64,000 nt of DNA from Rhodospirillales bacterium. GTDB taxonomy: Bacteria > Pseudomonadota > Alphaproteobacteria > MPNO01 > UBA2964. Below, one piece after another: positions 6,523 to 21,589 of this stretch. The first letter of the stretch is position 1. Each line of letters starts with the position of its first letter. The stretch is from NCBI GenBank assembly GCA_038120295.1, contig JAYOLL010000001.1, forward strand, positions 205,140 to 269,139, in the 5' to 3' direction. The position numbers and the translations under genes were made by a program. The notes below the pieces were generated by a model, which ran no database searches, was not told where the DNA came from, and was given only the letters and a program-made list of their open reading frames with translations.

Positions 6523-6634
6523 GCATATTCGACGGCAACTATGCCCGGATTCAGCCGTGAATTCGTGCGCGGGCCGGTGATCCATGTTCCTGCCAACCCC
6601 GTATCGGAAGTAGTAGCAAGAATGGAGCAGGCAT

Positions 6635-7549: not shown

Positions 7550-7571
7550 GCGGTGCTGGAGGTGATTGATG

Positions 7572-8147: not shown

Positions 8148-8164
8148 TGAATAATCTCCTGGTT

Positions 8165-8962
8165 TTAAAGACGGTTCAGGAAGCCCAGCAGGGCCTGATT
8201 GAAATCGGCCGGGTTCTCCATGTTGGAAATATGCCCGGCTCCGGGCACGACATGCAGCTCCGAGCCGGAAACCGCCTGCTGCATCGGGCCCATCGTGTCG
8301 GCATTGGCTGCCGGGTCGAATTCACCGCAGATGAACTGGGTCGGTACCCGGATGCGGTCGAGGCGTGCCTTGTAGTTGATGTCCTGCAGCGCATTCGAAC
8401 AGCCGATGAACCCGTCGAGCGAGGTCGTGGCGATCATGCCCTTGATCTTTTCCATCACGGGCGCATTGGCCGGGTCCGTGTGAAATTTTTCCGTAAACCA
8501 GCGATTGGCCGTTGGCTCAGCCATGCCGTCCATGCCGACTTCTTTCGCCATGGCGATGCGGTCGTCCCAGGCGGCGGTGAAATCGGGCAGGGACTCGCAG
8601 CGCAGGTCGCAGCCGATATAGGCCGCCAGTCGGTCTTCGTAATCGATGGCGAGGCCGAGACCGGTCGTGCCGCCCATCGACAGGCCGCAGAACACGCTGC
8701 GCCGTACGCCGAGCTCATCCCAGATCGCGACGACATCGGCGGCCAGTTGATCGAACGAATAAGGGGGCGTCGTCGCCTGGGTCTTTCCGTGGCCGCGCTG
8801 GTCGTAGCGAAGCACGCGCCAGTTATCCGACAGCAGCGCCGCCTGTTCGTCCCACATGGTGATGTTGGTGGCGAGCGAGTTGGAAAAGGTGATCCACGGC
8901 GCGCCTTCCGGTCCGTCGACTTCGCAATTGAAAGTGATGCCGTTCGCGGCAACGGTCGGCAT
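8165..8962 (-). CDS. Alpha/beta-hydrolase (3-oxoadipate enol-lactonase-like)
   Basis: 265 aa. GLSMGG nucleophile elbow, HGKT oxyanion region, C-terminal GAGHISNMENPADF. Confidence 0.7.
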   Translation of the reverse strand: MPTVAANGITFNCEVDGPEGAPWITFSNSLATNITMWDEQAALLSDNWRVLRYDQRGHGKTQATTPPYSFDQLAADVVAIWDELGVRRSVFCGLSMGGTTGLGLAIDYEDRLAAYIGCDLRCESLPDFTAAWDDRIAMAKEVGMDGMAEPTANRWFTEKFHTDPANAPVMEKIKGMIATTSLDGFIGCSNALQDINYKARLDRIRVPTQFICGEFDPAANADTMGPMQQAVSGSELHVVPGAGHISNMENPADFNQALLGFLNRL

Positions 8963-9114
8963 GGCAAGCCCCCCGGCTGTTATCGATAGGGGACCTGATA
9001 CGGTTTTTGCCGCAGGCGGTCAACGGAGGCAGCGGCGGGATAATATGCGCCCTATCCGACCGGATGCCGGGTTCCTATGATGGTTTGCAATAAAAGAGGT
9101 AACGGGAGGCGCCG

Positions 9115-9978
9115 ATGAACGCTGACAGGAAAAAACGACTAATGCTCAAGGACGCGCTAGCGGCGCCTGACATTGCTCTGGCGCCAGCATGCGCCGATGT
9201 GTCGACGGCGCGTCTGGTGGAGCGTATGGGGATCGCAGCCATCCACGGTTCCGGCAGCACGATGCACCGCACGGCGGGCTACGCCGATGCCGGATACCTG
9301 ACGATGACCGAAATGGCCAACCGCATCCGTTCGCTCAACGAGGGGATCGGCATCCCCGTTATCGCCGACGCCGATACCGGGTTCGGCGGTCCCTCGAATG
9401 TGGTCCGGATGGTCAGGGAGTACGAGCGCGCCGGCGCGGCGGCGATCCATATCGAGGATCAGCTGACGCCCAAGCGGCCGACCCATGCCGGCTTCGACGG
9501 TAATTTCGTCTCCCGGGCCGAAATGGTGGACAAGATCCGCGCCGCCGTCGATACGCGCGAGGACGAGAACCTGCTGATCATCTCGCGCTGCGATGTCGAC
9601 GACTGGGACGAAAAGCTGGAACGGCTCGTCGCCTGCCGAGATGCCGGCGCCGATTGCGGCTGGATTGCGGCGCACGATCCGGAAAGGATCCGGGAAATCG
9701 TCGACGCGTGCGGCACGCCCTGTATCGGCGTGCTGCAGCCTTCCATGAGCGCCCAGGAATTCCAGGCCGCCGGCGCCGCGCTGGCGCTTATTCCCACCGC
9801 GCTGGAAATCGCCGCCCTGTGCGCGCAGATGGCGGTGCTGGAGTCGTTGAAGGCGACGGGAACCTTCGCCGAATGCCTCAACGGCCTGCCGAACATAGAC
9901 GAGATGCGACCCTTCTATACCCAGCAGGGCACCGAGGAGCTGAAACGCGTCGAGGCGAAATATAACGGGGAGGGGTAG
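9115..9978 (+). CDS. Isocitrate lyase/PEP mutase superfamily protein (paralogue 1; catalytic-loop Cys replaced, KRPTH)
   Basis: 287 aa. DADTGFGG and IHIEDQ motifs of the ICL/PEPM fold. The gating loop reads TPKRPTHAGF instead of KRCGH. GGGAGG RBS upstream. Confidence 0.75.
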   Translation: MNADRKKRLMLKDALAAPDIALAPACADVSTARLVERMGIAAIHGSGSTMHRTAGYADAGYLTMTEMANRIRSLNEGIGIPVIADADTGFGGPSNVVRMVREYERAGAAAIHIEDQLTPKRPTHAGFDGNFVSRAEMVDKIRAAVDTREDENLLIISRCDVDDWDEKLERLVACRDAGADCGWIAAHDPERIREIVDACGTPCIGVLQPSMSAQEFQAAGAALALIPTALEIAALCAQMAVLESLKATGTFAECLNGLPNIDEMRPFYTQQGTEELKRVEAKYNGEG

Positions 9979-9985
9979 TCTAGCC

Positions 9986-10879
9986 CTACGGTCTGAACAA
10001 TATTCGGGCGGCAGTTGCCGCCATGCGCCTGTTGCTGTGCCCGACTCCAGGAACGGATTCCAGCCTCCATCCGAACTCAAAACGGTTCATGCGGGCAAAC
10101 TCCTGAGACACTGAGAAAAAATTTCTGGCGCGTTCAAGGCGGTGACTTCCCTGCTTCCGGGTGTTGCTGTTCTGCCGCAGAGATTTCGCATACGGGTCGT
10201 TGTCGTTTTCGCCGATAAGGATTGTCAGGTCGGTTCCGAATACCGACCGCCAGTCGATCTGGTCTTTCTTTAGCAGTCCCGTGCCGTACGGGTAGTTCCG
10301 GTCTTCGTCCGGCCACAGATAGTATCCCGCGTTTGCGGCGACCGCGCGGATGATCCGCTTCCCGCCGGTAAGCATGACGTAGCGGTGTACGAACTGTGCG
10401 CCGGCAGAGTGGCCGTACAGATAGAATTTTTCGCCGTTTGCGCCTGTGGCTGCGGCCGCGATGGCGACGGCTTCTTCCATTGCACTGAAGCTCCAAACAG
10501 CCCGTGGCTTCTGTACGTTGCGGCTTTTCGTCAGGACATTGCCCCAGTTGTAGTGGCGGCCGGACGGCCAGTCCTGTCTGGCGAATTCCGGCACGAGCAG
10601 AATGACGCCCTGCGCGTTTGTGAACGGTTTCCAGACATCAAGATAATTTCCTGCCGTTCGGCTCTTGCCGTGCATGACCACAAGAATTCGGGAGTCGTCC
10701 GACCGCGCATCGGGAATATGGATATGCGCCCGGACGGTTCGCCGCCGCTCGACATCGTCTATTTCGAATGTCTTCGTAATGGTTTCGCCGGCTTGAGATA
10801 AAGATAAGCTGCTCAGGGCAACAAAGGCCGCTACAGCGGACGCGGCCCACCGCGCCGGAAATCTTTTTCGATATGGCAT
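9986..10879 (-). CDS. Secreted alpha/beta-hydrolase (esterase/depolymerase-like)
   Basis: 297 aa. Signal peptide (AASAVAAFVALSSLSLSQA). LYGHSAGAQF GxSxG. His near the C-terminus (GVGHS). Confidence 0.6.
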   Translation of the reverse strand: MPYRKRFPARWAASAVAAFVALSSLSLSQAGETITKTFEIDDVERRRTVRAHIHIPDARSDDSRILVVMHGKSRTAGNYLDVWKPFTNAQGVILLVPEFARQDWPSGRHYNWGNVLTKSRNVQKPRAVWSFSAMEEAVAIAAAATGANGEKFYLYGHSAGAQFVHRYVMLTGGKRIIRAVAANAGYYLWPDEDRNYPYGTGLLKKDQIDWRSVFGTDLTILIGENDNDPYAKSLRQNSNTRKQGSHRLERARNFFSVSQEFARMNRFEFGWRLESVPGVGHSNRRMAATAARILFRP

Positions 10880-10971
10880 CCGAAAGAGGCCTCTCCTGTC
10901 GACTGTCCGACCCTACCACCAGGAAGGGGCGGGACGTATGATGAAAGCAACAACAGCTGAGGGAGTCATTC

Positions 10972-11928
10972 ATGCCCCGCAAAAACATGGGGAAGGCGTT
11001 CCGCGATCTGCTGGCGCAGGAGCGGATCATCGTCAAGCCGGGCGCCTATGACGCGCTGAGTGCGAAGATGATCGAGGCCGCCGGGTTCGAAAGCTGCGGC
11101 GTATCGGGCTACGCCGTGTCGGCAACGCTGCTGGGCAAGCCGGATTGCGGGCTGGTCACGCTTGATGAGATGGTAATGGTGTCGCGCTACGTGCAGGCGG
11201 CGGTCGATATTCCGGCCATCGCGGATGCCGATACCGGCCACGGCAATGCCATCAACGCGATGCGTACGGTCGAGGATTTCATCCGCGCCGGCGTCGGCGG
11301 CATCCATATCGAGGACCAGGTCGCGCCCAAGCGCTGCGGCCATGTCGCCGGCAAGCAGATTATCCCGGTCGAGGAAGCTGCCGGAAAATATCGTGCGGCC
11401 GCGAAGGTTCGTGATGAGCTCGACCCCGATTTCGTGCTGATCGCCCGGACGGATGCGCGTGGCGTTGCCGGCGGATCGGTGGATGCCGTGGTGGAACGGG
11501 CGAAGGCCTATCTCGATGCCGGGGTCGACATGATCTTTCCGGAAGGGCTGACTACGAAGGACGAACTGGCCGAGGTGTGCGACCGGGTCGATGCGCCGAT
11601 CCATTACAATCGTACAGGCGTCTCGCCCATGCTGACGCTGGAAGAACTGGACGAGCTGGGCGTCGCCATGGTGTCCAACGCGACCGGGACGCTGCGCTCG
11701 GCGGCGCGCGCCATGTGGGACTACATGCACCGGTTCCGGGACGAGGATGTCGCCTGGCAGAAGGCGTTTCTCGCCGAGGTAAAGGATCACCCGATTGGCG
11801 ATTTCCATGGTTTCATGGGTTTCGATACGCTGCGGGAGCTGGAGGAACAGTTTCTGCCGGCCGAGGAAATCGTCGCCAAGTACGAAGGTTCGGTCGGTTA
11901 CCAGCCGCCGACGGATCAGGAAAAATAG
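10972..11928 (+). CDS. ICL/PEPM superfamily lyase (2-methylisocitrate lyase / dimethylmalate lyase-like; canonical KRCGH)
   Basis: 318 aa. DADTGHG, IHIEDQVAPKRCGHVAGK catalytic loop, ARTDA. First gene of an operon with the LeuCD-like genes. Confidence 0.8.
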   Translation: MPRKNMGKAFRDLLAQERIIVKPGAYDALSAKMIEAAGFESCGVSGYAVSATLLGKPDCGLVTLDEMVMVSRYVQAAVDIPAIADADTGHGNAINAMRTVEDFIRAGVGGIHIEDQVAPKRCGHVAGKQIIPVEEAAGKYRAAAKVRDELDPDFVLIARTDARGVAGGSVDAVVERAKAYLDAGVDMIFPEGLTTKDELAEVCDRVDAPIHYNRTGVSPMLTLEELDELGVAMVSNATGTLRSAARAMWDYMHRFRDEDVAWQKAFLAEVKDHPIGDFHGFMGFDTLRELEEQFLPAEEIVAKYEGSVGYQPPTDQEK

Positions 11929-11940
11929 GGGAGACCGACC

Positions 11941-13215
11941 ATGCCGGGCATGACGGCCATAGAGAAGATTCTCGCCCGCAATGCTGGGCTCGACCGCGTC
12001 GGACCCGGCGATCTCGCCGTGGTCAAGGTGGGCTGTGCGGTGCTTTACGACAACAACCTTATCCCCGCGAACTGGCGCAAGCTGACAAGCGTGTACGACC
12101 CCGACCGTATCGTGGTGGTGTTCGACCACCGCGTGCCGGCCAAGGATGTGATTACCGCCACGGCGCAGAAAACAGGGCGGGAGTTCGTCGCGCAGTTCGG
12201 CATTAAGCGGTTTCATGATGTCGGCCCGAACCAGGGGATCTGCCATGTGCTGGTGGCTGATCACGGCTACGCCATTCCTGGCGAGGTGCTGGTCTGCGGC
12301 GACTCGCACACCTGTTCCGCCGGCGTGTTCAATTGCGCCGCGCGGGGCACCGGCTCGCCCGACATGCTGTACGCCGCCGCAAAGGGCGAGACCTGGTTCC
12401 GGGTCGGCGAAACAGTGCGCTACGAGCTCGAAGGCGAACTCCAGGAGGATGTCTCGACCAAGGATGTGTTTCTCCATATCGCCGATAAATTTGGCGATCA
12501 TGCGACGATGAACGTCGAATATGGCGGACCGGCGCTGGCGAACCTGTCGATCAACGCACGGCGAACGCTGTCGACCATGTCGGCGGAGCTGTCGGCGGAG
12601 TTTGCGACGTTCGAGCCGGACGATGTCATGCTCGACTATGTGCGGGAGCGAAATCCGGGTCTTGAGTTCGAGGCGCAATATTCCGATGCGGACGCGGCCT
12701 ACGCTGCTGTGCGGACCGTCGACCTCTCTGCCATCGAGCCGCAGGTGGCGCTGCCGGATTCGGTGCTCAACAATTCTCAGCCTGTCGGCGCTGTCGCGGG
12801 TACGAAGATCGATCAGGCCTTTATCGGTTCCTGCGCCAACGGCACGCTCGACGATCTGGCCGTCGCAGCGAAAGTCCTGAAAGGTCGACAGGTGGCCGAC
12901 AGTGTGCGGCTGATCGTGACGCCGGGCTCGCAGAACATCTATCGGGACGCGCTTCGGGCCGGCTATATCGAGACGCTGATGGATGCTGGCGCGGTCGTTA
13001 CGAATTCGACCTGCGGTGCGTGCGGCGGCGGCAATCTTGGCATCCTTGCGCCGGGGGAGACCTGTATCACGGCGAGCACCCGCAACTTCAAGGGACGCAT
13101 GGGCTCGGCGGAAGCGCGCATCTTCATGGCCTCGCCCGCCACCGTTGCGGCCTCCGCTGTCGAAGGGACGATCGCCGATCCCCGCGAGGTGCTGGCGAAA
13201 GGAGCCGCATCATGA
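11941..13215 (+). CDS. Aconitase-family dehydratase large subunit (LeuC/DmdA-like, short archaeal-type)
   Basis: 424 aa. GICH, VCGDSHT, Fe-S ligand region GSCANG and NSTCGACGG, FKGRMGS. Confidence 0.85.
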   Translation: MPGMTAIEKILARNAGLDRVGPGDLAVVKVGCAVLYDNNLIPANWRKLTSVYDPDRIVVVFDHRVPAKDVITATAQKTGREFVAQFGIKRFHDVGPNQGICHVLVADHGYAIPGEVLVCGDSHTCSAGVFNCAARGTGSPDMLYAAAKGETWFRVGETVRYELEGELQEDVSTKDVFLHIADKFGDHATMNVEYGGPALANLSINARRTLSTMSAELSAEFATFEPDDVMLDYVRERNPGLEFEAQYSDADAAYAAVRTVDLSAIEPQVALPDSVLNNSQPVGAVAGTKIDQAFIGSCANGTLDDLAVAAKVLKGRQVADSVRLIVTPGSQNIYRDALRAGYIETLMDAGAVVTNSTCGACGGGNLGILAPGETCITASTRNFKGRMGSAEARIFMASPATVAASAVEGTIADPREVLAKGAAS

Positions 13216-13727
13216 TCCTGCCCGGTAGGACCTGTATCGGCAAGACCTGGATATTCGGCGACAACATCAACACCGACCTGATCCTTCCCGGCCGCGCACA
13301 GTGGTTCACAGAAGAAGAACAACTGGCCTGCGTTTTTGAGGCCAACCGCCCCGGATGGATCGACGAGATCGCGCCCGGTGAGATCATTATCGGCGGGCAG
13401 AATTTCGGCATGGGCTCAAGTCGCCCGGCGGCGCGGTCGCTGCGCAACCTGAAGCTCGGCTGCCTGGTCGCGGAGTCGATTAACGGGCTGTTCTTTCGCA
13501 ACTGCGTCAACTGGGGCTTCCGGGCGCTCGAATGTCCGGGCGTGTCAGAGGCGTTCGAGGAAGGCGATGTCGCGGAGGTGTCGTTCGAGGATTTCACCGT
13601 GCGCAACCAGCGGACGGGCGCGACGCTTCAGTCCGCCGCCGTGCCTGCGACGCTGCTTGCCACCATGGAAGCCGGCGGCGTACTGCCGCTGCTTGAGAAG
13701 GAAGGCCTGATCGAGGCGACGGAATAG
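13212..13727 (+). CDS. Aconitase-family dehydratase small subunit (LeuD/DmdB-like)
   Basis: 171 aa. GDNINTDLI and GGQNFGMGSSR swivel-domain motifs. Its ATG overlaps the large-subunit stop (ATGA at 13212-13215). Confidence 0.8.
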   Translation: MILPGRTCIGKTWIFGDNINTDLILPGRAQWFTEEEQLACVFEANRPGWIDEIAPGEIIIGGQNFGMGSSRPAARSLRNLKLGCLVAESINGLFFRNCVNWGFRALECPGVSEAFEEGDVAEVSFEDFTVRNQRTGATLQSAAVPATLLATMEAGGVLPLLEKEGLIEATE

Positions 13728-15158
13728 CTACTCCGCTGCCGCGGCACCGACTTTTCCGCTCATATATTTCGCGACCTCGTCCTCGACTACGGTGCCTTTG
13801 AAGAAGTCCGGATTCATACCGGCATGCATCGAAACGACATTGCCGAAGGTAAACTCGCGGAAATCGTCGTCGTCCATAAAGCCGTCCTCGACCATTTCAT
13901 AGGCCTCGACCATCACTTTCGACATATCCGGCACGTCCCAGTGGCCGATGTCGGAGCCGAGGAAAGCATTCAGCTTCAGCCCGTAATGGTTGATTCTGGG
14001 GTCGAAGGCGAGGGCATTGAGACTGTCATCCGCCTCGCAGCCGAAATAGAAGTTGCGCTGGAAAATATCGCGGATGTCCTCTCCCTTCGTGATTCCGCTT
14101 TCACGAAAATCGTCGACCTCTTCGGCGGGTACGAAGAGTTGCGTGGCTGACGGCTGGTGCGGCGCTTCGCGAATGCGTTCGGGCGTCAGGTAGTCGTTGC
14201 CGTACTTGTCGAACATCTCGACCATCAGGTCGATATTAAGCGCCGACGGGTCGAGATTGCGCTTTTCGAAATATTCGAACAGCGAGTTGTAAAGGGCTGC
14301 CGCCCAGCCGGGCCCGCCTTCGAGGAAGGCGTATTTGAGCGTCGGGAAACGTTTCGGTACGCCGCCCATGAACAGCGAACGGCAAAAAAACTCCGATCCC
14401 TTGGCGAAGCTGCCAAGCGAGTTGTGCACGTAGTTGGTGGGCGAGTTGTTGAGCGATCCGCGGCCACGCGACGAATTGTGGCAACTCGGTGCAACCTCGA
14501 GTTCTACGCATCTGGCCCATACCTTGTCGTATCTGTCGCCGACATCGATGGCGGGCGAGATTGGTGCGGTAGAATACTGCGCGAGGTGCGGCGCTTCCTT
14601 CACCACGTCCGGATGCGGCAGATGGATCTGGGTGTTCATGACGATAGCTTTGAGACCCAGCTCGTTGACCACGAATTCGAGCTCCGCCACGACTTCGTCG
14701 GGGTCGTGCATAGGGATCAGCGCGACCGGCGTCAGCCTGTCTTCAAGTCCTCTGAACATGTCGGCATAGAGCATGTTCATGGCGCGATAGATAACGGGAC
14801 GCATCTCGTCGTCGCCCTCGCGCATCACGGTCAACGCGTAGGTGCCGTATACGACACCAAAATCGATGCCTGCCTCGTCGAGTCGTTCGTAATAGAGCTT
14901 CGGCAGCATGGCGGTCGCGCGATCAATGCTCATGTCGCCGGAAAGCCCCACCCAGACCGCGCGCCGTCCGCGCGTCTGGTTGTCGTGAATCAGGTGCTGC
15001 TCGTATCGCTTCGCCATATCGGAACCGCCGACCTTTTTGACGAAATCGAGTATCGCGAAGCTCGCCTCGATCATGTGCCCGTCGGCATCCACTACCGGAT
15101 GGTTCAGCTTTTTACGAATGTCCGCGCCCTTGAGCTTGCTGTCGTGATGTCCCGTCAT
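13728..15158 (-). CDS. Amidohydrolase-2 family (metal-dependent TIM-barrel hydrolase/decarboxylase-like) protein
   Basis: 476 aa from ATG 15158 (MTGHHDSKLK...). VVDADGHMIE N-terminal metal-site region. Transcribed divergently from the UbiD gene. Confidence 0.65.
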   Translation of the reverse strand: MTGHHDSKLKGADIRKKLNHPVVDADGHMIEASFAILDFVKKVGGSDMAKRYEQHLIHDNQTRGRRAVWVGLSGDMSIDRATAMLPKLYYERLDEAGIDFGVVYGTYALTVMREGDDEMRPVIYRAMNMLYADMFRGLEDRLTPVALIPMHDPDEVVAELEFVVNELGLKAIVMNTQIHLPHPDVVKEAPHLAQYSTAPISPAIDVGDRYDKVWARCVELEVAPSCHNSSRGRGSLNNSPTNYVHNSLGSFAKGSEFFCRSLFMGGVPKRFPTLKYAFLEGGPGWAAALYNSLFEYFEKRNLDPSALNIDLMVEMFDKYGNDYLTPERIREAPHQPSATQLFVPAEEVDDFRESGITKGEDIRDIFQRNFYFGCEADDSLNALAFDPRINHYGLKLNAFLGSDIGHWDVPDMSKVMVEAYEMVEDGFMDDDDFREFTFGNVVSMHAGMNPDFFKGTVVEDEVAKYMSGKVGAAAAE

Positions 15159-15279
15159 GGCTCTGATCCCCTGTCTTGCCGTCCGCAAAAAGCTTAGTCC
15201 CGAAAGGGAGATTTGCGAAGGCTGCCCTGTACCGTTTTTCCTGCCTGGGATACGCTTGCGGAAACACAGGGAGTCTCCT

Positions 15280-16932
15280 ATGCCGAACGACACTGCGGGC
15301 CGTGACTATCCGGATTTTCACGATCATCTGGCGGCCCTGGAAGAGGCCGGGCTGCTGACCGTGATCGACGCGCCGGTCAACAAGGATACCGAACTGCATC
15401 CGCTGGTCCGCTGGCAGTTTCGGGGCGGCATTGCGGAAAAGGACCGCAAGGCGTTCAAGTTCACCAATGTGACAGACTCGAAGGGCCGGAAATACGATAT
15501 GCCGGTGGTGGTCAGCGCGCTGTCGACCAACGAGCAGATGTATTCGATCGGGATGGGCGTTCCGGTCGAGGAGATCGGCGACCGATGGAACCACGCCATC
15601 GCCAATCCGATCGATCCCGTGACGGTCGAAGATGCGCCCTGTCATGAGGTCGTGATCACCGGCGACGATCTGCGCGGAGAAGGCAAGGGGGTCGATGCGC
15701 TGCCGGTGCCGATTTCCACCCCGGGCTATGATTCAGCGCCGTATTTCACCGCGACCAACGTCACCACGAAGAACCCGGAGACGGGGACCCAGAATATGGG
15801 CACCTATCGTGTCGGGCTAAAGGCACCCGACCGTCTGGCGGTAAGGATGGTGGCGCGGCCCGGTGGCGCGGAGGGCCATCTGCACTGGGAGCTGTGGAAG
15901 AAGCGGGGCGAAAAGATGCCCTGCGCTGTTGTCGTTGGCTGCCCGCCGTCGGTTGCCTTCATGGGACCGCAGAAACTGCCGGTCGGGATCGAGGAGATGG
16001 CGGTCGCAGGCGGTGTGGTCGGGGCGCCGATCCGGCAGGTGAAGTGCAAAACCATCGACATCATGGTGCCGGCGGAATCCGAACTGGTGATCGAAGGGCT
16101 GGTCGATACGGAATATCTCGAACCCGAGGCGCCGTTTGCCGAGAGCCATGGCCATGTTGCGCTGGAGGATTACAACACGGTGATGGAGATTACCGCGATC
16201 ACGCACCGCAGGGACGCGGTCTATACCTCGATTATCTCTCAGCTTACCCCGTCGGAATCCTCTGTAATCAAGCGCGTAGCGTACGAGCCGCTCTACCTGT
16301 CGCATCTCCGCGACAATCTCGGTATCAAGGGCGTGAAGCGGGTCTATCTGCACGAGAAGCTGACCAACCTGCGCAAGGTGCTGTTCGTGGTCGTCGACAG
16401 AGATACGCCGACGACAGAGGTGTGGCGTGCGCTCTATGGCGCGTCGTCGCTTGCCGCCGCCATCGGCAAATACGTGGTCGCAATCAACGAGGACATCGAT
16501 CCGGAAAACGGCGATTCCGTATTCTGGGCGCTGGCCTACCGGTCGAACCCGGCGCTGGACGTGCAGATACTCAAGCACAAGGTGCGCTACGGGCCGCGCG
16601 ATCCGCGCACGCCCAACGGCGAAGAATCGATCTGCCTGATTGACGCGACGCTCAAGGCCGACATGCCTCCTATTGCGCTGCCCAAGCGCGAATACATGGA
16701 AGGCGCAAAAGAGCTATGGGAACGGCTGGGCCTGCCGCCTTTACAGCCGGAAAGCCCGTGGCATGGCTATTCGCTTGGCGACTGGACCGATGAATGGGAC
16801 GAGATGGCGAAACGCGCGGCGGAAGGAAATTACCTCGAGAACGGCCGCCGCAGCGCGCAATATCGCCGTAAGGATGTCGCGCCCAACACCTCCATTCGCG
16901 ATGTCCCGGGCGGCCCGTTCGACAAGTCCTGA
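15280..16932 (+). CDS. UbiD-family (prFMN-dependent) reversible decarboxylase
   Basis: 550 aa. Typical UbiD architecture and motifs (YPDFHDHLAALEEAGLL N-terminus, VVVGCPPSVAFMG, ESHGHV). AGGGA RBS before ATG 15280. Confidence 0.85.
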   Translation: MPNDTAGRDYPDFHDHLAALEEAGLLTVIDAPVNKDTELHPLVRWQFRGGIAEKDRKAFKFTNVTDSKGRKYDMPVVVSALSTNEQMYSIGMGVPVEEIGDRWNHAIANPIDPVTVEDAPCHEVVITGDDLRGEGKGVDALPVPISTPGYDSAPYFTATNVTTKNPETGTQNMGTYRVGLKAPDRLAVRMVARPGGAEGHLHWELWKKRGEKMPCAVVVGCPPSVAFMGPQKLPVGIEEMAVAGGVVGAPIRQVKCKTIDIMVPAESELVIEGLVDTEYLEPEAPFAESHGHVALEDYNTVMEITAITHRRDAVYTSIISQLTPSESSVIKRVAYEPLYLSHLRDNLGIKGVKRVYLHEKLTNLRKVLFVVVDRDTPTTEVWRALYGASSLAAAIGKYVVAINEDIDPENGDSVFWALAYRSNPALDVQILKHKVRYGPRDPRTPNGEESICLIDATLKADMPPIALPKREYMEGAKELWERLGLPPLQPESPWHGYSLGDWTDEWDEMAKRAAEGNYLENGRRSAQYRRKDVAPNTSIRDVPGGPFDKS

Positions 16933-16936
16933 TCGG

Positions 16937-19270
16937 ATGGCTATATCGACCCCTACCGGAATCGGGGCACCGCTGCCGCGGGCTGAGGACAGGCGTCTGC
17001 TGACCGGCGAGGGGAGCTACAGCGACGATATTTCACGTCCCGACCAGCTTCATATCGCTATGGTTCGCAGTCCCCATCCGCATGCGGAACTGTTCGGAGT
17101 CAATGCGACGGCGGCGAAGGCAATGGCTGGCGTGATCGATGTTCTGGACGGGGTCGACTGGCGCGCGGACGGTCTCGGTCCGATGCCGGCCTGGGGCAAC
17201 CCCAAGGATGTCGAACTGAAGAATGCCGACGGCTCCCCGATCTTCTATACGCCGCTCTGGCCGGTTGCGGTCGATCGCGTTCGTCGCGCAGGAGAGATCG
17301 TAGCCGTCGTTATCGCTGAAACGGAAGCGGCGGCCCAGGAAGCGGCGGAAGCCGTGTCACTCGACTGCAAGATTCTTCCCGCTGTCGTCGACCCTGAGGC
17401 CGCCCTGGCGGACGGCGCGCCTCTCCTGTGGAAAGAGGTTCCCGGCAACCTCAATTTGCGGGACGAGAAGGGCAATCGCGAGGCTACCGACCTGGTGTTC
17501 GAAAACGCCTGGCAGACGGTGTCGTTCGAGAGCTGGAACCAGCGCGTCACGGGCGTCCCAATGGAGCCGCGCGCGGCTCTCGGCGAATACAGCGACGGAA
17601 AATTCCTGCTCGAAGCGGGCGGGCAGGGCGTCATCCGGTTCCGTAACGAACTGGCCCAGACCTTCGGCGTCGATCCCGCCCACATGCATGTGATCACCCG
17701 TGACGTCGGTGGGGGGTACGGGACGCGTAACCACACCTACCCCGAATTTGCGCTTGTGCTATGGGCGGCGAAACGGATCGGCCGGCCAGTAAGATGGGTA
17801 TGCGAGCGCTCTGAGGCGTTCCTCAGCGACTATGCCGGGCGTGACCTGCATATGACAGTGGAGGTCGCACTCGACTCCACCGGCCGCATTCTAGCCATGC
17901 GCAATGGGAATACCGCCAATATCGGCACTCATACGATCAGCTATGTACCGCTGGCGCGCGGGCCGACGGTCTATAACGGGGTCTACGATATCCCGGTGGC
18001 GCACATTGTGTCTTCTGCGGTTTTCACCAACACGACGGCCACGGCATCCTATCGTGGGGCAGGGCGACCGGAAGCCATGTTCCTGATCGAACGGCTGATG
18101 GATGTCGTTGCCGCAGAAACCGGGATTGACCGGATAGAACTGCGCCGCCGAAACATGATCCCGGAAGACCGCATTCCCTACAGAAACGCAGTGGACGTTT
18201 CCTACGACAGCGGACGGTTCGAGCGGTCGATGGACATGGCGCTGGCGATGATCGGCTGGGTTGACGCGGACGCGCGCAAGATCGCGGCGAAGGAACGGGG
18301 AAAGTTGCGGGGCATAGGCCTTGCCAACTATATCGAGACGGCGACCGGCTACCCGCAGGAGCGCGCCGAGATGGAAATCATGCCGGGCGGAATTGTGGAT
18401 CTGATAATGGGGACGCAGTCGAGCGGCCAGAGCCATGAGACGACCTATCCGCAGGTCGTCTCGGATTGGCTCGGCGTACCGTATGACAGCGTTCGGCTGC
18501 GCACGGGCGATACCGACTTCGTGTCCGCCGGGTCCGGGTCCCATTCATCTCGCTCGATGAAGCTTGCCGGCCATCTTTACCGTCAAACCGCGGACGACAT
18601 CATCGAGCGCGGCGCCCAGATTTCAGCGCATCTGCTTGAGGCGTCGCGCGAAGATATCCTCTTTCATGACGGTCAGTTTGAAATTGAGGGGACCGACCGG
18701 TCTGTGCATCTGTTCGACGTCGCCCGCGAGGCGACCGGCGAGAACGTACCGGAGGAACTGCGTGGGCCTCTGCGCGCCGTGGCCGAAATCGCGGCGCCTC
18801 TTCCGACCTATCCAAACGGCTGTCACGCGGCAGAAGTCGAGATCGATCCGGAAACCGGGGTGGTGGAGATCGTTGTCTATGTCGGGGTGGACGATCCCGG
18901 CACCGTGATCAATCCGCTGGTGGTCGACGGTCAGACCCATGGCGGCGCAGTGCAAGGGATCGGGCAGGCGCTGATGGAAGCCTGCACCTACGATCCGGAC
19001 AGCGGACAGCTTCTGGCAGGCTCGTTCATGGATTACGCCATGCCACGCGCAGACGATGTGCCGTCTTTCGATACCGCCTTCAACGAGGTTCCGGCGCCTT
19101 CGACAGAGCTCGGCGTGAAGGGCGGCGGTGAAGGGGGCGCGACGGCGGCTCCGCCCGCGATTGTCAACGCGATCTGCGACGCGCTGTTGGAATACGGCGT
19201 GCGCCATATCGAAATGCCGGCCACACCAGAGCGCATCTGGCGGGCCATTCGCGATCATCAAACAGGCTGA
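16937..19270 (+). CDS. Xanthine dehydrogenase/aldehyde oxidase-family molybdopterin-binding large subunit (orphan)
   Basis: 777 aa from ATG 16937 (MAISTPTGIGAPLPRAEDRRLLTGEGSYSDD). MoCo-binding segments (GGGYG, SYRGAGRPE, C-terminal GVKGGGEGG). Starts 4 nt after the UbiD stop. Confidence 0.85.
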   Translation: MAISTPTGIGAPLPRAEDRRLLTGEGSYSDDISRPDQLHIAMVRSPHPHAELFGVNATAAKAMAGVIDVLDGVDWRADGLGPMPAWGNPKDVELKNADGSPIFYTPLWPVAVDRVRRAGEIVAVVIAETEAAAQEAAEAVSLDCKILPAVVDPEAALADGAPLLWKEVPGNLNLRDEKGNREATDLVFENAWQTVSFESWNQRVTGVPMEPRAALGEYSDGKFLLEAGGQGVIRFRNELAQTFGVDPAHMHVITRDVGGGYGTRNHTYPEFALVLWAAKRIGRPVRWVCERSEAFLSDYAGRDLHMTVEVALDSTGRILAMRNGNTANIGTHTISYVPLARGPTVYNGVYDIPVAHIVSSAVFTNTTATASYRGAGRPEAMFLIERLMDVVAAETGIDRIELRRRNMIPEDRIPYRNAVDVSYDSGRFERSMDMALAMIGWVDADARKIAAKERGKLRGIGLANYIETATGYPQERAEMEIMPGGIVDLIMGTQSSGQSHETTYPQVVSDWLGVPYDSVRLRTGDTDFVSAGSGSHSSRSMKLAGHLYRQTADDIIERGAQISAHLLEASREDILFHDGQFEIEGTDRSVHLFDVAREATGENVPEELRGPLRAVAEIAAPLPTYPNGCHAAEVEIDPETGVVEIVVYVGVDDPGTVINPLVVDGQTHGGAVQGIGQALMEACTYDPDSGQLLAGSFMDYAMPRADDVPSFDTAFNEVPAPSTELGVKGGGEGGATAAPPAIVNAICDALLEYGVRHIEMPATPERIWRAIRDHQTG

Positions 19271-19282
19271 GAGGAAACAGAC

Positions 19283-20014
19283 ATGGCCGACGACAAAATC
19301 CTTTGCGAAAAGAGGGGCGATGCGACTCACATCACGCTGAACCGGGCCGATTGCGGCGGGCTGGTCAGCGATCCGATGGCGGTCGAGCTTGCCGATATGA
19401 TCGACGCCGCGGCGGCGGAGTCGAAATATATCGTGTTCCGCAGCGCGGGCGCCGATTTCTGCCTTGGGCGAGACCCGGAAGGGCGTGAACCCGGCAAGCC
19501 GAAGGATGCACTGGATTCGCGCCGCCGGTCCGAGGTCGTGTTCAATTTTTACGGCGCATTCCGCCGGTCGAAGGTGCCGGTCGTCTGCGCTGCGCAGGGC
19601 CGCTCCCTCGGGTTCGGTTGCGCCATCACGTCGGTCTGCGACATTACCATCGCAGGGGAAAGTTCCACTTTTGCGCTACCCGAGATGGGGCACAACATCA
19701 TGCCGACCATGGCGATGTCGTCGCTGGTCGATCGGGTGGGACGCAAGGGCGCTCTGTATCTGACCTACTCGACCGAGGAAATCGACGCGCAGACCGCGCT
19801 TGCCTACGGGCTGGTGAGCCGGGTTGTTCCCGACGACCGGATCGAGGCCCAGGTGGAGCTGGTCTGCGCCGCTCTCGACAAGGCGCCTCTGCCGGCGGTG
19901 ATGTCGGTCAAGGAATACGCCACCAATGCACTCACCATGAGCATTGAGCAGGCATCCGATTTCGCCCGCAACATGCATGCGGCCGTGAATACGTCGGAAG
20001 GGATGCGGCGGTAA
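19283..20014 (+). CDS. Enoyl-CoA hydratase/isomerase (crotonase) family protein
   Basis: 243 aa. Crotonase fold signatures (FCLGRD, VPVVCAAQGRSLGFGCAI, oxyanion-hole region). Confidence 0.75.
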   Translation: MADDKILCEKRGDATHITLNRADCGGLVSDPMAVELADMIDAAAAESKYIVFRSAGADFCLGRDPEGREPGKPKDALDSRRRSEVVFNFYGAFRRSKVPVVCAAQGRSLGFGCAITSVCDITIAGESSTFALPEMGHNIMPTMAMSSLVDRVGRKGALYLTYSTEEIDAQTALAYGLVSRVVPDDRIEAQVELVCAALDKAPLPAVMSVKEYATNALTMSIEQASDFARNMHAAVNTSEGMRR

Positions 20015-20023
20015 ATTCGACCG

Positions 20024-21430
20024 ATGGCCGCCGGTTACTTTCGCGAACGCCGCCGCCTGGCCGCTGTTTTCGTCGTCGGCGGTCTGGCGGCGATGGCGGT
20101 CGTGCTGGGCGCCTTGTGGAAGTTGTCCGAAAACGCCGGCGGCGGCCATGAATCCTGGCTTGTCGTCGCTTTCGCACTGGCCGGGATCGTCGCCGGTCTG
20201 GCGCTGATCTGGGTGAGGCTCGACAGAACACTGCTCTATCCCCTCGAACGGCTGGAGCGCGAACTCGATACCTTGCTGCATGCGGATCCCAAGCGCGCAG
20301 TCGATCTGGTCGAACCTGGCCTGCTGGGACCGGTCATCGCCAGGATGGAACGCCTTTTTGCGCGCGCGGACAGGAGCAGGCAGGACCTGGCCGCTTCGAT
20401 AGCCGCAGCGACCGCCGCGCTGGAGAGCGACAGATCGAAGCTCGCAACGATCCTCCATGAACTGCCTGATGGCGTCGTGGTCTGTTCGGCTGATCATCGT
20501 ATCCTGCTCTTCAACGCCGCGGCCCGCCAGATTGTGGCCAACGGGGACCGGCTGGGCGTTGGGCAACCAGTCGATTTCTGTTTCGACAGGGAAACAGTGG
20601 CAAGTGCCTTCGACAGGGTCGCTGCGGGCGTTGGACGAGATATTTTGCTCATCGATTTGCCTCAGACAGGCCCCGCCCGCATTGCGGCCTGGCACGGTAA
20701 GGGCGGAGACTGCGAAGGGTACGTGCTGACGATTGTCGCCGAGCCAAACGGTGGCGAGGCGAAGATGAAACGGCTGGCCTACGATTTCGGAATTTCCGGT
20801 CGGCCGGTCGAGGAAACCGGGGGCGATGTGAAGCTCTCGGAGGCGACCTTCGTGGTTTTCGGTATTCTGACCACGGGGCTCCGGCCCGACAGAGGCGACC
20901 GGATCCTCCGGATTGGCGCCGTCAGGGTCTCGAACGGGAAAGTGCGCGAAGAGGAAGTCTTCGAGACTCTGGTCAATCCCGGCCGTCCTGTCCCGCCTTC
21001 TTCAACCCGGCTTCACGGTCTCACCGATGAAATTGTTGCCGATGCGCCCGATACGGTCCGGGCCATTGCGTCGTTTCACGCGTATTGCGGCGATGCCGTG
21101 CTCGTGGCGCAACATGCCGGGTTTGATATGCGGTTTCTGCGTAATAGCCAGCAGGAAGCGGGTGTAGAGTTCCCCGACAGGTTTCTTGATCCCATGCTGC
21201 TATCCTTCGTTCTTCATCCCGGGGAAAGCGACCATTCTCTCGCAGCGCTGGCGAGGCGTTACGGCGTCGATATAGCGGGACCGCACACGCTTAATGAAGA
21301 CGTACGGGGGGCGGCGGAAATTCTGTGCCGGATGGCGCCGCTGCTGGCCGCTTCGGGGATCGAAACGGTCGATCAGGCGATAGAGGCGTGCAGAAAGAGC
21401 ATCGCCAGAAACGGGAAGACGTCGGAATAG
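20024..21430 (+). CDS. Membrane-anchored PAS-domain protein with a C-terminal DnaQ-like 3'-5' exonuclease domain whose catalytic motif is degenerate
   Basis: 468 aa. Two N-terminal TM helices, coiled linker, PAS-like segment (LHELPDGVVVCSADHRILLFNAAARQIV). Exo domain with motif II HAGFDMRFL and motif III HTLNEDV. Motif I reads FVVFGILTTGL where DxETTG is expected. Confidence 0.6.
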   Translation: MAAGYFRERRRLAAVFVVGGLAAMAVVLGALWKLSENAGGGHESWLVVAFALAGIVAGLALIWVRLDRTLLYPLERLERELDTLLHADPKRAVDLVEPGLLGPVIARMERLFARADRSRQDLAASIAAATAALESDRSKLATILHELPDGVVVCSADHRILLFNAAARQIVANGDRLGVGQPVDFCFDRETVASAFDRVAAGVGRDILLIDLPQTGPARIAAWHGKGGDCEGYVLTIVAEPNGGEAKMKRLAYDFGISGRPVEETGGDVKLSEATFVVFGILTTGLRPDRGDRILRIGAVRVSNGKVREEEVFETLVNPGRPVPPSSTRLHGLTDEIVADAPDTVRAIASFHAYCGDAVLVAQHAGFDMRFLRNSQQEAGVEFPDRFLDPMLLSFVLHPGESDHSLAALARRYGVDIAGPHTLNEDVRGAAEILCRMAPLLAASGIETVDQAIEACRKSIARNGKTSE

Positions 21431-21589
21431 GATTCTGCCGGAAGGATCGCCTTTGCCGGCGGTATTTGCTCGATCAGAGCCTGCGACGGGTGCGCCGCCG
21501 GGCCAGTCCTATGGAAAATTCCGCTTGGCGGCTGCTTCGTGAAGCGCGAACATCAACTGTACCCGGGTCAACGTTGTGGGGGATGCGGC

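Follow-up and report, generated by a model that had tools for sequence, protein, structure and literature searches.

What does a dense run of catabolic genes in an uncultured marine Rhodospirillales bacterium do, and is it a variant of nicotinate fermentation? The genes lie in a 64-kb window, the whole stretch of DNA analysed here, and were first described as one module spanning positions 9115–19270. Comparison with about 170 related loci suggests that the region 7572–20014 is probably a composite catabolic cluster made up of two independently conserved modules.

Every gene that the initial annotation listed between 9115 and 19270 is real and intact, and the gene models were identical from independent gene callers (six near-identical metagenome contigs). 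Its boundaries required correction at both ends: the crotonase falls past 19270, and the start was placed too late, as a cupin (7572–8147) and a PcaD-like hydrolase (8165–8962) belong to the conserved unit. A secreted esterase gene on the minus strand (9986–10879), which sits between the two ICL/PEPM paralogues, had gone unmentioned. The window additionally encodes an aromatic-ring hydroxylase, a dienelactone hydrolase and a dehydroshikimate-dehydratase-like gene. The features of the region are as follows.

7572–8147, minus strand: small cupin (191 aa; Pfam Cupin_2)
8165–8962, minus strand: PcaD-like alpha/beta hydrolase (265 aa; TIGR02427)
9115–9978, plus strand: PEP_mutase/ICL-family paralogue (287 aa; KRPTH at 9472–9486)
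9986–10879, minus strand: secreted esterase-like protein (297 aa; weak NCBIfam matches to PHB-depolymerase-type esterases)
10972–11928, plus strand: ICL/PEPM-family C-C lyase (318 aa; KRCGH at 11329–11343)
11941–13215, plus strand: LeuC/HacA-type [4Fe-4S] hydratase large subunit (424 aa; aconitase family)
13212–13727, plus strand: LeuD/DmdB-type hydratase small subunit (171 aa; the sequence places the start codon at 13212)
13728–15158, minus strand: Amidohydro_2 protein (476 aa; Pfam PF04909)
15280–16932, plus strand: UbiD-family (prFMN-dependent) decarboxylase (550 aa; Pfam UbiD, UbiD_N, UbiD_C)
16937–19270, plus strand: xanthine-oxidase-family Mo-binding large subunit (777 aa; Pfam Ald_Xan_dh_C, MoCoBD_1, MoCoBD_2)
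19283–20014, plus strand: atypical crotonase-superfamily protein (243 aa; Pfam ECH_1, 97.8 bits)

The first module has as its core the UbiD protein, a CoxL/Qor-like Mo large subunit and the atypical crotonase, with the PcaD-like hydrolase and the cupin upstream and one variable slot for a second decarboxylase or hydrolase; the second consists of the LeuCD-type Fe-S hydratase and the KRCGH lyase.

Within the core, UbiD carries the motifs QNMGTYR and EAPFAE and is extended at the C-terminus by a conserved stretch of about 80 aa. Among solved structures HmfF (6h6x, 144.6 bits) comes closest to it, with E. coli UbiD behind, and homologues with 67–100% identity are abundant in marine Alphaproteobacteria. 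The Mo large subunit, which starts 4 nt past UbiD, in translational coupling with it, and bears the motifs YRGAGR and GGGEGG, is of the CoxL form-II/Qor-like type, scoring 447 bits with CoxL, 358 with Qor and 354 with KDH, against about 85 to 95 bits with the nicotinate dehydrogenase chains. Its best NCBIfam match, an aldehyde oxidoreductase (glyceraldehyde dehydrogenase alpha), reaches 532 bits, below the cut-off of 790. The description of this hydroxylase as an orphan is borne out locally, no gene for an FeS or FAD subunit being present within the 64-kb window: a tblastn search of the window with CoxM, CoxS and CoxG of a rhizobial relative returned no match, and none of its ORFs bears the two CoxS-type Cys motifs. 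UbiD and the Mo subunit are directly adjacent at 14 of 15 orthologous loci, and CoxS/CoxM lie alongside at none of the 15. The crotonase is found at 12 of these loci, the remaining three ending too early downstream to reveal it. When it is aligned with PaaF, its GFGCA, invariant across all crotonase orthologues, stands opposite GAGCE, so that the first hydratase Glu is lost, while LPE is retained; the protein is possibly a thioesterase, an isomerase or a C-C hydrolase.

At the left edge, orthologues of the cupin (77–87% identity) occupy the same position in L014–L024 and L099–L101; its best solved relative, 3es1, is a structure without known function. The PcaD-like hydrolase adjoins the cupin in all orthologous clusters. 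It has both a GLSMG nucleophile motif and a C-terminal His and scores 229.5 bits on TIGR02427 (3-oxoadipate enol-lactonase; cut-off 255.85), and we regard it as a putative enol-lactone or C-C/ester hydrolase.

The second module is compact: 12 nt separate the lyase stop from the LeuC start, and an ATGA overlap joins the LeuC and LeuD genes in translational coupling. The large subunit exceeds the cut-offs of NF001614 (452 bits; cut-off 385) and TIGR01343 (435 bits; cut-off 385.7), has the cluster-ligand motifs GSCANG and CGAC, and finds its best solved relatives in the isopropylmalate/citramalate isomerase of M. jannaschii (345 bits) and homoaconitase. The lyase (Pfam PEP_mutase, 179 bits) keeps K120 R121 C122 G123 H124 invariant across 17 homologues and matches PrpB (185 and 170 bits), petal death protein (165) and the fungal dimethylmalate lyase (145). 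These comparisons set it in a subfamily of its own, with 2-methylisocitrate lyase as the closest neighbour. Identity with plain PrpB was considered and is unsupported (TIGR02317, 250 bits against a cut-off of 354). Lyase and LeuCD are common as a stand-alone pair among the related loci, and among the 26 lyase-homologue loci that extend for 3 kb or more in both directions, 13 have a LeuC-like gene. The coupling proposed at the outset thus holds, and because it is tight, with catalytic motifs intact and adjacency recurrent, a hydratase-then-lyase logic of the DmdAB/Dml type is reasonable.

The initial annotation counted two lyases. This stands for the KRCGH protein; in the paralogue at 9115–9978 (121.8 bits on PEP_mutase and 155 on the prpB model, whose cut-off is 354) KRPTH replaces KRCGH and the catalytic Cys is absent, and it is therefore not an ICL-type C-C lyase. 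Second PEPM paralogues are also seen beside lyase homologues at other loci, and the KRPTH form itself is restricted to the window's species and L011 (87% identity). The esterase-like gene, the N-terminus of whose product resembles a signal peptide, has the same distribution and is a lineage-specific insertion, probably outside the pathway.

The variable slot is occupied here by the amidohydrolase. The gene is present as first described; it belongs to PF04909, lies on the opposite (minus) strand and is not of the enamidase type. Its solved relatives, all weak, are DitZ, 2,3-dihydroxybenzoate decarboxylase and salicylate decarboxylase, and enamidase was absent among those at E ≤ 0.01; the product is a putative non-oxidative decarboxylase, hydratase or ring-opening hydrolase. 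At one locus (L178) a 71% homologue is flanked by two orphan Mo large subunits. Relatives have, in place of the amidohydrolase, an AldolaseII protein (class II aldolase family; AldII), a DnaJ-like protein and a PcaIJ-like CoA-transferase (CoAT). The gene order of these relatives runs cupin, hydrolase, lyase, LeuC, LeuD, AldII, DnaJ-like, CoAT-B, CoAT-A, UbiD, Mo large subunit, an optional VOC dioxygenase-like gene and crotonase. It is retained in L014–L017, L020, L022 and L024 (UbiD 74–84% identical to that of the window) and in the metagenome contig L008 (81%).

Would the genes prove scattered in relatives? The comparison mostly favours linkage. Among the 12 species-level relatives for which the upstream side is visible, 7 retain the whole arrangement, and only in those 7 is the second module joined to the first. 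The lyase is missing from L023 and from the closest sister species, L011, and is thus dispensable to the cluster; lyase and LeuCD are both missing from L012, L013 and L025. The UbiD–Mo–crotonase trio recurs in every orthologous cluster and also as diverged paralogous sets: L042, L057 and L065 carry such sets of UbiD, Mo subunit, CoA-transferase and crotonase, and one TARA contig has two UbiD–Mo pairs. Unbiased clustering of neighbours around the UbiD clade placed the Mo subunit as top partner (32 of 80 loci), followed by crotonase, alpha/beta hydrolase, TctA, a TPP enzyme and AldII. On rhizobial plasmids a UbiD (55% identical) is followed by a Mo subunit, with CoxMSG, a second Mo subunit and UbiX as neighbours, and a single Limnohabitans operon holds CoxM, CoxS, Mo subunit, a hydrolase of the same family as that at 8165–8962, crotonase, CoxG, UbiD, a Rieske oxygenase and AldII. 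Genes of aromatic type in the relatives include the PcaD-like hydrolase, the PcaIJ-type transferase and an extradiol-dioxygenase-like gene. A prolyl oligopeptidase and a 5-FTHF cyclo-ligase, unrelated genes flanking the cluster, are also syntenic in fairly close relatives. As much of the synteny comes from such relatives sharing unrelated flanks, the linkage could partly reflect inherited gene order and not selection.

Our preferred reading, which we hold to be about equally likely to be right or wrong, is a two-module route for a polycarboxylated (hetero)aromatic acid, its steps and their order inferred from family chemistry. UbiD would decarboxylate the acid; the Mo enzyme, with FeS and FAD subunits encoded elsewhere, would use water to oxidise or hydroxylate the ring or an aldehyde precursor; and Amidohydro_2 (an aldolase-II type in relatives) would take off a second carboxyl or an amide/lactone function. 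The PcaD-like hydrolase and the crotonase-fold enzyme would then open and hydrolyse the ring product, LeuCD would hydrate the resulting substituted maleate- or aconitate-like acid, and the lyase would cleave the hydrated acid to a 2-oxo acid and a carboxylic acid. Against this reading, the modules are not tied to one compound by substrate, transporter specificity or regulator, and none of the 64 kb encodes an FeS or FAD partner for the Mo subunit. The PcaIJ-type CoA-transferase and the VOC dioxygenase-like gene are missing from the window's version of the cluster; without the former, the crotonase has no obvious supply of CoA esters.

The two halves might instead be functionally unrelated neighbours, lying side by side in this clade through inherited gene order, the lyase–LeuCD pair (with or without the KRPTH paralogue) handling a small branched di- or tricarboxylate, e.g. 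citraconate- or methylisocitrate-like, and UbiD, Mo subunit and crotonase belonging to a separate pathway. Burkholderiales have lyase–LeuCD pairs beside TctC genes without UbiD or Mo subunit, and such pairs also occur in many metagenome contigs; L012, L013, L025 and L092 have the trio without the pair; and flanking housekeeping genes are syntenic in relatives too. We nevertheless find this explanation rather unlikely: in L023, for all its other rearrangements, LeuCD still directly precedes UbiD, and the lyase–LeuCD pair is retained with either slot variant, Amidohydro_2 or AldII/CoAT, and even where unrelated genes are inserted on its left. Less likely still is that the cluster encodes a modified furoate/2,5-furandicarboxylate (Trudgill/hmf) pathway or some comparable route for a five-membered heteroaromatic carboxylate. 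UbiD would remove one carboxyl, as HmfF does, the relatives' PcaIJ-type transferase would activate the product with CoA, the Mo enzyme would hydroxylate C5 (as HmfA), the PcaD-like hydrolase would open the tautomeric enol-lactone, and the crotonase would be an HmfE-like thioesterase. The HmfF likeness of UbiD and a crotonase lacking a hydratase Glu, compatible with a non-hydratase role, speak for this, as does the kinship of the hydrolase with PcaD, whose natural substrate is a 5-oxo-4,5-dihydrofuran derivative. What the Trudgill pathway calls for is exactly a Mo-dependent acyl-CoA hydroxylase together with lactone hydrolysis and a CoA thioesterase (PMC3223595). Its logic fits better than that of nicotinate fermentation, but the genes are not orthologous: identity to the putative Geobacillus kaustophilus hmf genes is just 28% (UbiD) and 32% (Mo subunit), HmfB/C, HmfD and UbiX were not found in the window, and a 2-oxoglutarate endpoint would leave LeuCD, lyase, Amidohydro_2 and AldII without a role.

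Nicotinate fermentation itself appears very improbable as a model. In that scheme the Mo hydroxylase would serve as the nicotinate-type dehydrogenase, the amidohydrolase would be the counterpart of enamidase, and LeuCD and the lyase would act like DmdAB and Dml, yielding propionate and pyruvate. The direct coupling of a KRCGH lyase to LeuCD, the nearby Mo hydroxylase and amidohydrolase, and a small subunit scoring 108.7 bits on the 'LeuD/DmdB family' model TIGR02087 (cut-off 108.95) favour it. The analogy is weak: the amidohydrolase has no detectable enamidase similarity and is exchanged for other genes in relatives, nicotinate dehydrogenase is a far more distant relative of the Mo subunit than CoxL, Qor and KDH are, and no 6-hydroxynicotinate reductase, 2-methyleneglutarate mutase or methylitaconate isomerase family member was found among the window ORFs scanned. 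UbiD and crotonase were rightly recognised from the start as foreign to the nicotinate pathway; they are not add-ons, and with the Mo subunit they make up the part of the cluster that is best conserved. The least probable reading is an aliphatic route, in which LeuCD as a dehydratase would give an alpha,beta-unsaturated di- or tricarboxylate for UbiD to decarboxylate, CoA-transferase and crotonase would process the enoate, and the Mo subunit would be an aldehyde oxidoreductase, as its sub-threshold NCBIfam match suggests. The archaeal mevalonate pathway uses an aconitase-type dehydratase and a UbiD-type decarboxylase. LeuCD is linked to UbiD more tightly than the lyase is (L011, L023), and aldehyde-forming enzymes (TPP decarboxylases, thiolase-like/DUF35 pairs) recur beside UbiD–Mo pairs. 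Against it, UbiD is nearest to HmfF and UbiD and not to enoate decarboxylases of the Fdc1 or TtnD type, the crotonase lacks a hydratase Glu, and the PcaD-like hydrolase, extradiol-dioxygenase-like gene and Rieske oxygenase of related clusters indicate ring chemistry.

All the evidence gathered agrees with the suggestion made at the outset, a novel route for a substituted (hetero)aromatic or branched acid. The route is probably an uncharacterised one, its likeness to nicotinate fermentation limited to a single hydratase-plus-lyase step, and its role in this marine bacterium is probably the breakdown of a carboxylated aromatic or heteroaromatic acid.

The region at 7572-20014 is an uncharacterised modular catabolic cluster built of known enzyme families. 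Its gene map is the same in an ORF listing, in scans against Pfam and NCBIfam, and in gene calls made independently on six near-identical metagenome contigs. The genes, with the one that comes next beyond the crotonase, are the following:

7572-8147, minus strand: small cupin
8165-8962, minus strand: alpha/beta hydrolase, PcaD-like
9115-9978, plus strand: PEP-mutase/ICL-superfamily protein (the KRPTH paralogue)
9986-10879, minus strand: secreted esterase-like protein
10972-11928, plus strand: second PEP-mutase/ICL-superfamily protein (the KRCGH lyase)
11941-13215, plus strand: LeuC-type hydratase large subunit
13212-13727, plus strand: LeuD-type small subunit, ATGA overlap with LeuC
13728-15158, minus strand: Amidohydro_2 protein, 476 aa
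15280-16932, plus strand: UbiD-family decarboxylase, 550 aa
16937-19270, plus strand: xanthine-oxidase-family Mo-binding large subunit, 777 aa, 4 nt 3' of UbiD
19283-20014, plus strand: crotonase, 243 aa
20024-21430: membrane-sensor/DEDDh-exonuclease fusion, the next gene beyond the crotonase

The catabolic module reported in the initial annotation is real and its interpretation is supported in part, with three corrections to the module: the first ICL/PEPM paralogue carries KRPTH, the amidohydrolase (PF04909) lies on the minus strand and the crotonase occupies 19283-20014. The fusion gene starts 10 nt past the crotonase and codes for 468 aa, which comprise membrane segments at the N terminus, a sensor-like region in the middle and a DEDDh (RNase T/DnaQ) exonuclease domain at the C terminus; it was not found 3' of the crotonase in any relative, including the nearest sister species (the Rhodospirillales MAG L011). 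An Rfam search gave no match above chance, and promoter and terminator scans returned signals at chance level only.

The association of a KRCGH lyase with a coupled LeuC/LeuD-like pair, from which a likeness to nicotinate fermentation had been proposed, is confirmed. The KRCGH loop lies at 11329-11343, its residues K120, R121, C122, G123 and H124 are invariant in 17 homologues, a gap of 12 nt separates the lyase gene from LeuC, and the Fe-S ligand cysteine motifs GSCANG and CGAC are kept in LeuC. The latter passes the cut-offs of NF001614 and TIGR01343 (archaeal-type LeuC/HacA subfamily), and the small subunit stands at the threshold of the LeuD/DmdB model (108.7 bits for a cut-off of 108.95). 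Compared with solved structures, the lyase scores highest with 2-methylisocitrate lyases (185 bits with 3eoo, and 170 bits), followed by petal death protein (165) and a fungal dimethylmalate lyase (145). PrpB of the methylcitrate cycle is its best-scoring characterised relative and shares KRCGH and the Asp/Glu metal ligands; the aligned Arg/Asn/Thr positions of the Escherichia coli enzyme are also kept. However, the PrpB stretch ‘ALYPLS’ aligns with ‘VSNATG’ in the lyase of the window, which suggests a different pocket, and the scores against both PrpB equivalogs fall far under the cut-offs (TIGR02317, 250.1 bits for 354.4; NF008455, 205.4 for 353), which by sequence makes this protein a distinct subfamily and not plain PrpB. 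The competing assignment, a plain 2-methylisocitrate lyase working with a Prp system, also finds no prpC, prpD, acnD or prpF family member in the cluster or in the orthologous clusters.

Of the two ICL/PEPM lyase paralogues claimed for the module, only the protein at 10972-11928 stands as such. The other has KRPTH (9472-9486) where the K(R/K)CGH loop has its catalytic cysteine and, judged by this motif, cannot be an ICL-type lyase; it scores 155.5 and 127.1 bits against TIGR02317 and NF008455, below the cut-offs. In the nearest sister species (L011, 4737-7883), the KRCGH lyase gene is missing and the esterase is followed by LeuC after 211 bp; the KRPTH paralogue is kept, at 87% identity.

From a substituted di- or tricarboxylate that is unsaturated, the lyase and LeuCD would together yield a 2-oxo acid and a carboxylic acid, as do DmdAB and Dml in the nicotinate fermentation of Eubacterium barkeri. 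The likeness lies in a two-subunit LeuCD-type [4Fe-4S] hydratase encoded beside an ICL/PEPM KRCGH lyase, and the expected common logic is hydration of a substituted maleate followed by cleavage of the substituted malate to a 2-oxo acid and an acid. The cluster matches nicotinate fermentation at this hydratase-lyase step and at no other part of the pathway, and even here the lyase is nearest to PrpB-type enzymes by bit-score ranking against solved structures. The families of 6-hydroxynicotinate reductase, 2-methyleneglutarate mutase and methylitaconate isomerase are absent from the window ORFs scanned, and there is no co-located nicotinate dehydrogenase NdhFSLM, the Mo subunit of the window being CoxL/Qor-like and alone. 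The two counterparts suggested on the strength of co-location are not supported either: the amidohydrolase belongs to PF04909 and gave no enamidase match at E <= 0.01, and the Mo subunit reaches only about 85-95 bits with the chains of nicotinate dehydrogenase, compared with 447 for CoxL and about 350-360 for quinoline oxidoreductase and the ketone dehydrogenase of the nicotine pathway.

The Mo subunit has three Pfam domains, a form-II CoxL-type YRGAGR loop and the GGGEGG motif with the active-site Glu. Its loop has no CODH-type Cys, so that it is not a form-I CO dehydrogenase; its best NCBIfam match is an aldehyde oxidoreductase, below cut-off. No genes for a [2Fe-2S] small subunit or a FAD medium subunit were detected in the window by CoxS motif search and tblastn, and tblastn with rhizobial queries found no homologue of CoxM, CoxS, CoxG, UbiX or the TPP enzyme in the 64 kb. 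The FeS and FAD partners are present in more distant clusters, on rhizobial plasmids and in Limnohabitans. A second locally orphan large subunit of this family, 35% identical to the first, is encoded at 45695-48034, directly 3' of nitrile-hydratase beta (split into N and C parts) and alpha genes and 5' of a CMD/AhpD-like gene (44300-48600), with no FeS or FAD subunit nearby.

The decarboxylase comprises the UbiD_N, UbiD and UbiD_C domains of Pfam. Its motifs QNMGTYR (15790-15810; QNxGxYR) and EAPFAE (16126-16143; ExPFxE), which by reference to Fdc1 and UbiD we take to be the metal/prFMN-binding and acid-base motifs, respectively, are invariant in 19 homologues. Among solved structures, the furandicarboxylate decarboxylase HmfF comes closest, followed by E. 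coli UbiD. Past the region that aligns to solved UbiD structures, the protein carries a C-terminal extension of ~80 aa (residues about 465-550; 16660-16932) in which W494, G496-G500, W502, W506, R530, D532, P535, N536 and R540 are invariant in 19 sequences. These are many Trp, Gly, Arg and Pro residues, and the extension might be an interaction surface. No UbiX homologue was found in the 64 kb window by tblastn with rhizobial UbiX, whereas the clusters of the rhizobial relatives do have one.

In the crotonase, the first of the two catalytic Glu residues of canonical enoyl-CoA hydratases, equivalent to Glu144 and Glu164 of the rat enzyme, is replaced by Ala (GFGCA, compared with GAGCE in PaaF), and the second is kept (LPE); the replacement is common to all orthologues. 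The alpha/beta hydrolase falls just short of the PcaD 3-oxoadipate enol-lactonase model (229.5 bits for a cut-off of 255.85). The solved relatives of the amidohydrolase, all weak, are DitZ, 2,3-dihydroxybenzoate decarboxylase and salicylate decarboxylase.

Two other parts of the window deserve mention. An aromatic-type gene set, separate from the cluster, occupies the minus strand at 24431-30154 (FAD aromatic-ring hydroxylase, dienelactone hydrolase, Zn-dependent alcohol dehydrogenase, metallo-beta-lactamase-fold protein and SnoaL-like protein). The region 35226-37925 encodes a 632-aa fusion of a xylose-isomerase-like TIM barrel and an HPPD-like protein, with an architecture like that of 3-dehydroshikimate dehydratase; beside it lies a distant class II aldolase-family paralogue (37146-37925, 24% identical to the class II aldolase of the relatives), after which come a sulfatase and an MFS transporter.

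Conservation of the arrangement was analysed in 80 loci around UbiD relatives from species-representative genomes and 79 loci around lyase relatives from metagenomes, together with contexts obtained by exact-protein look-ups; all loci were scored by tblastn with the cluster proteins. The orthologous group, defined by a UbiD at least 74% identical, contains 15 species-level loci, and the closest species-level genome among the matches listed is L011, with 96% identity in UbiD. The Mo subunit directly adjoins UbiD in 14 of the 15 loci and the crotonase is found in 12, the remaining three being too short downstream to reveal it; CoxS and CoxM are present within 10 kb in none of the 15. The upstream side is visible in 12 loci, and in seven of these (L014-L017, L020, L022 and L024) the arrangement is complete: cupin, hydrolase / lyase, LeuC, LeuD, class II aldolase-family protein / DnaJ-like protein, CoA-transferase B and A / UbiD, Mo subunit, an optional two-domain VOC dioxygenase-like gene and crotonase. 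The same order exists in the metagenome contig L008. LeuCD without the lyase is seen in two of the 12 (L011 and L023), and neither lyase nor LeuCD in three (L012, L013 and L025). Linkage in relatives, on which the proposal of a single route was to be judged, is therefore retained in seven of 12 loci and incomplete in five.

The position between LeuD and UbiD is variable. It is held by Amidohydro_2 in the window, in L011 and in one relative at 87%, and by the class II aldolase, the DnaJ-like protein and the transferase in the other relatives; this CoA-transferase passes the PcaIJ/ScoAB subfamily cut-offs. The J-domain protein (205 aa; 13330-13947 in L007, also in L008 and L014-L024) lies between the class II aldolase and CoA-transferase genes, an odd site for a co-chaperone, and is missing from the window. 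Among the compared loci, the KRPTH paralogue and the esterase are confined to the species of the window and L011.

These distributions show that the cluster is made of two separable modules, lyase-LeuCD and UbiD-Mo. The first also stands alone in many unrelated genomes, often beside TctC transporter genes; in a Burkholderiales MAG, for example, it occurs without UbiD or the Mo subunit, flanked by TctC genes and adjoining a second PEPM paralogue. A LeuC-like gene is present in 13 of the 26 lyase-homologue contigs with at least 3 kb on each side.

The UbiD-Mo pairing extends much further than the orthologous clusters. The UbiD clade has more than 579 relatives among species-representative genomes, and identities range from 60 to 96% among the 80 loci kept. 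Unbiased clustering of the neighbours in these loci placed the Mo large subunit first (32 loci), followed by crotonase (17), alpha/beta hydrolase (14), TctA (12), TPP enzyme (12), LeuC (10), class II aldolase (9), FMN dehydrogenase (8), CoxM (8) and CoxS (8). One TARA contig (L092; ERR599094 k127_687960, 3700-21641) carries three UbiD paralogues and two UbiD-Mo pairs in 18 kb. Alongside them lie a class II aldolase, a crotonase, a TPP enzyme, an FMN-dependent alpha-hydroxyacid dehydrogenase and the transporter genes TctC and TctA/B; gene calling gave no FeS or FAD subunit in this stretch. Paralogous cassettes combine UbiD with a DUF35/thiolase-like pair, a Mo subunit, a family III CoA-transferase and a crotonase. 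The operon of Limnohabitans consists of CoxM, CoxS, Mo subunit, alpha/beta hydrolase, crotonase, CoxG, SBP, UbiD, Rieske oxygenase and class II aldolase.

On plasmids of Neorhizobium petrolearium and Sinorhizobium meliloti, a UbiD (55% identical) is followed by a Mo subunit, GntR and UbiX, and this set is divergent from a second Mo subunit with CoxG, CoxS and CoxM; TctC, TPP enzyme and modABC genes lie nearby. In N. petrolearium (L093, NZ_CP123001, 784-3405 and 6314-17465), the modABC molybdate-transporter genes are a few kb from the UbiD-Mo cluster, which also has a TIGR02444-family protein; the same protein occurs 3' of GntR in a Phyllobacterium remnant (L096). The UbiD match on a Phyllobacterium plasmid is broken into three pieces, with no annotated gene and no adjoining Mo subunit. 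In the marine contig L178 (ERZ24794639 NODE_39, 41-17449), a 482-aa Amidohydro_2 family member lies between two orphan Mo large subunits. A second Amidohydro_2 paralogue is also encoded there, as are a cytidine-deaminase-like and a RidA-like protein, a Rieske (LigXa-like) oxygenase, a LigB dioxygenase and a TPP enzyme; the locus resembles a further uncharacterised cassette for N-heterocycles or aromatics.

No description of the UbiD-Mo pairing or of the cluster was found in the searched literature, where a study of lumazine degradation is the sole relevant paper, as an analogy. In the lumazine/pterin cluster of Cupriavidus sp. LA-1 (LuDH, DHLI and XCDC), a Mo dehydrogenase, an amidohydrolase-2 protein and a UbiD-family decarboxylase act in one N-heterocycle pathway; its Mo enzyme is built of three subunits, small alpha and beta subunits make up a heterotetrameric amidohydrolase that is always found with a GTP-binding helper, and UbiX and a pterin deaminase are also encoded (PMC12391406). 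Compared by description, these defining features are absent here: the only such protein of the window is the 476-aa Amidohydro_2, and the cluster lacks a helper GTPase, UbiX and a deaminase. Equating its UbiD with XCDC or with a true UbiD orthologue gave no lead: the ~30%-identical matches, on plasmids of Paracoccus and S. medicae, have UbiX beside them; those of Paracoccus are also accompanied by annotated U32 and SCP2 ubiquinone genes, and the locus of S. medicae has no homologue of the Mo subunit or Amidohydro_2.

With the hmf genes of the Trudgill pathway (HmfABCDE and HmfFG of Cupriavidus basilensis), the cluster has in common a UbiD decarboxylase, a xanthine-oxidase-family Mo enzyme and a crotonase-family protein. 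However, UbiD and the Mo subunit are only 28 and 32% identical, respectively, to the putative hmf genes of G. kaustophilus pHTA426, and the acyl-CoA synthetase, FeS/FAD subunits and local UbiX are lacking; an orthologous relationship was rejected because of this low identity and the missing genes. The furoate pathway requires lactone hydrolysis and a thioesterase (PMC3223595). LeuCD, the lyase, Amidohydro_2 and the class II aldolase of the relatives are extra genes with no role in furoate breakdown. The PcaD-like hydrolase and the PcaIJ/ScoAB-type transferase of the relatives recall the lower beta-ketoadipate pathway (PcaD, PcaIJ), but the cluster has no PcaGH/CatA ring cleavage, cycloisomerase, PcaC or PcaF thiolase, and the window itself has no transferase.

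Taken together, a decarboxylase of the UbiD family, a Mo oxidoreductase that uses water, an enol-lactone hydrolase like PcaD, dioxygenase-like genes and a transferase of the PcaIJ type resemble a pathway that degrades the ring of an acid bearing two or more carboxyl groups, and anionic di- or tricarboxylates would suit the recurrent TTT transporters. We give this general picture about an even chance and have much less confidence in any order of steps. The class II aldolase and Amidohydro_2 families both include non-oxidative decarboxylases of hydroxylated aromatic acids (NCBIfam lists PhtC in the former, and the solved relatives named above illustrate the latter), so the interchangeable position is plausibly that of a second decarboxylase or a ring-opening hydrolase.

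Two roles can be considered for the Mo subunit. It may hydroxylate the ring carbon freed by UbiD, or UbiD may decarboxylate an acid that the Mo subunit makes by oxidising an aldehyde. Aldehyde oxidation is favoured by the recurrence of aldehyde-forming neighbours (TPP enzymes and thiolase-like/DUF35 pairs) and by the sub-cut-off match to aldehyde oxidoreductase. The FeS and FAD partners are presumably shared from another locus, by analogy with the rhizobial plasmids, where a single CoxMS set apparently serves two large subunits. A bolder and rather improbable proposal is that UbiD and the Mo subunit lacking FeS/FAD partners constitute a dedicated two-enzyme unit for O2-free exchange of a ring carboxyl for a hydroxyl (decarboxylation, then hydroxylation of the freed carbon with water), or for aldehyde oxidation followed by decarboxylation, multiplied into paralogous cassettes in marine Rhodospirillales and here feeding a DmdAB/Dml-like pair. 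UbiD-Mo cassettes would then be a general tool for stripping carboxyls from polycarboxylated aromatic or heteroaromatic dissolved organic matter.

As it stands, the cluster is one among many uncharacterised catabolic clusters of familiar enzyme families. Its main interest lies not in the nicotinate-like pair but in how abundantly a distinct UbiD clade is coupled to a Mo large subunit that is locally orphan, a coupling that has gone unstudied. This clade is distinct from all characterised members and would bring new substrates to prFMN enzymology. Cultured carriers (Neorhizobium petrolearium OS53, Sinorhizobium meliloti LMB1 and Limnohabitans) make the question directly testable. Should polycarboxylated (hetero)aromatics prove to be degraded by the pair and its accessory enzymes, marine and rhizosphere Alphaproteobacteria would have in them a new entry route for such compounds into central metabolism.
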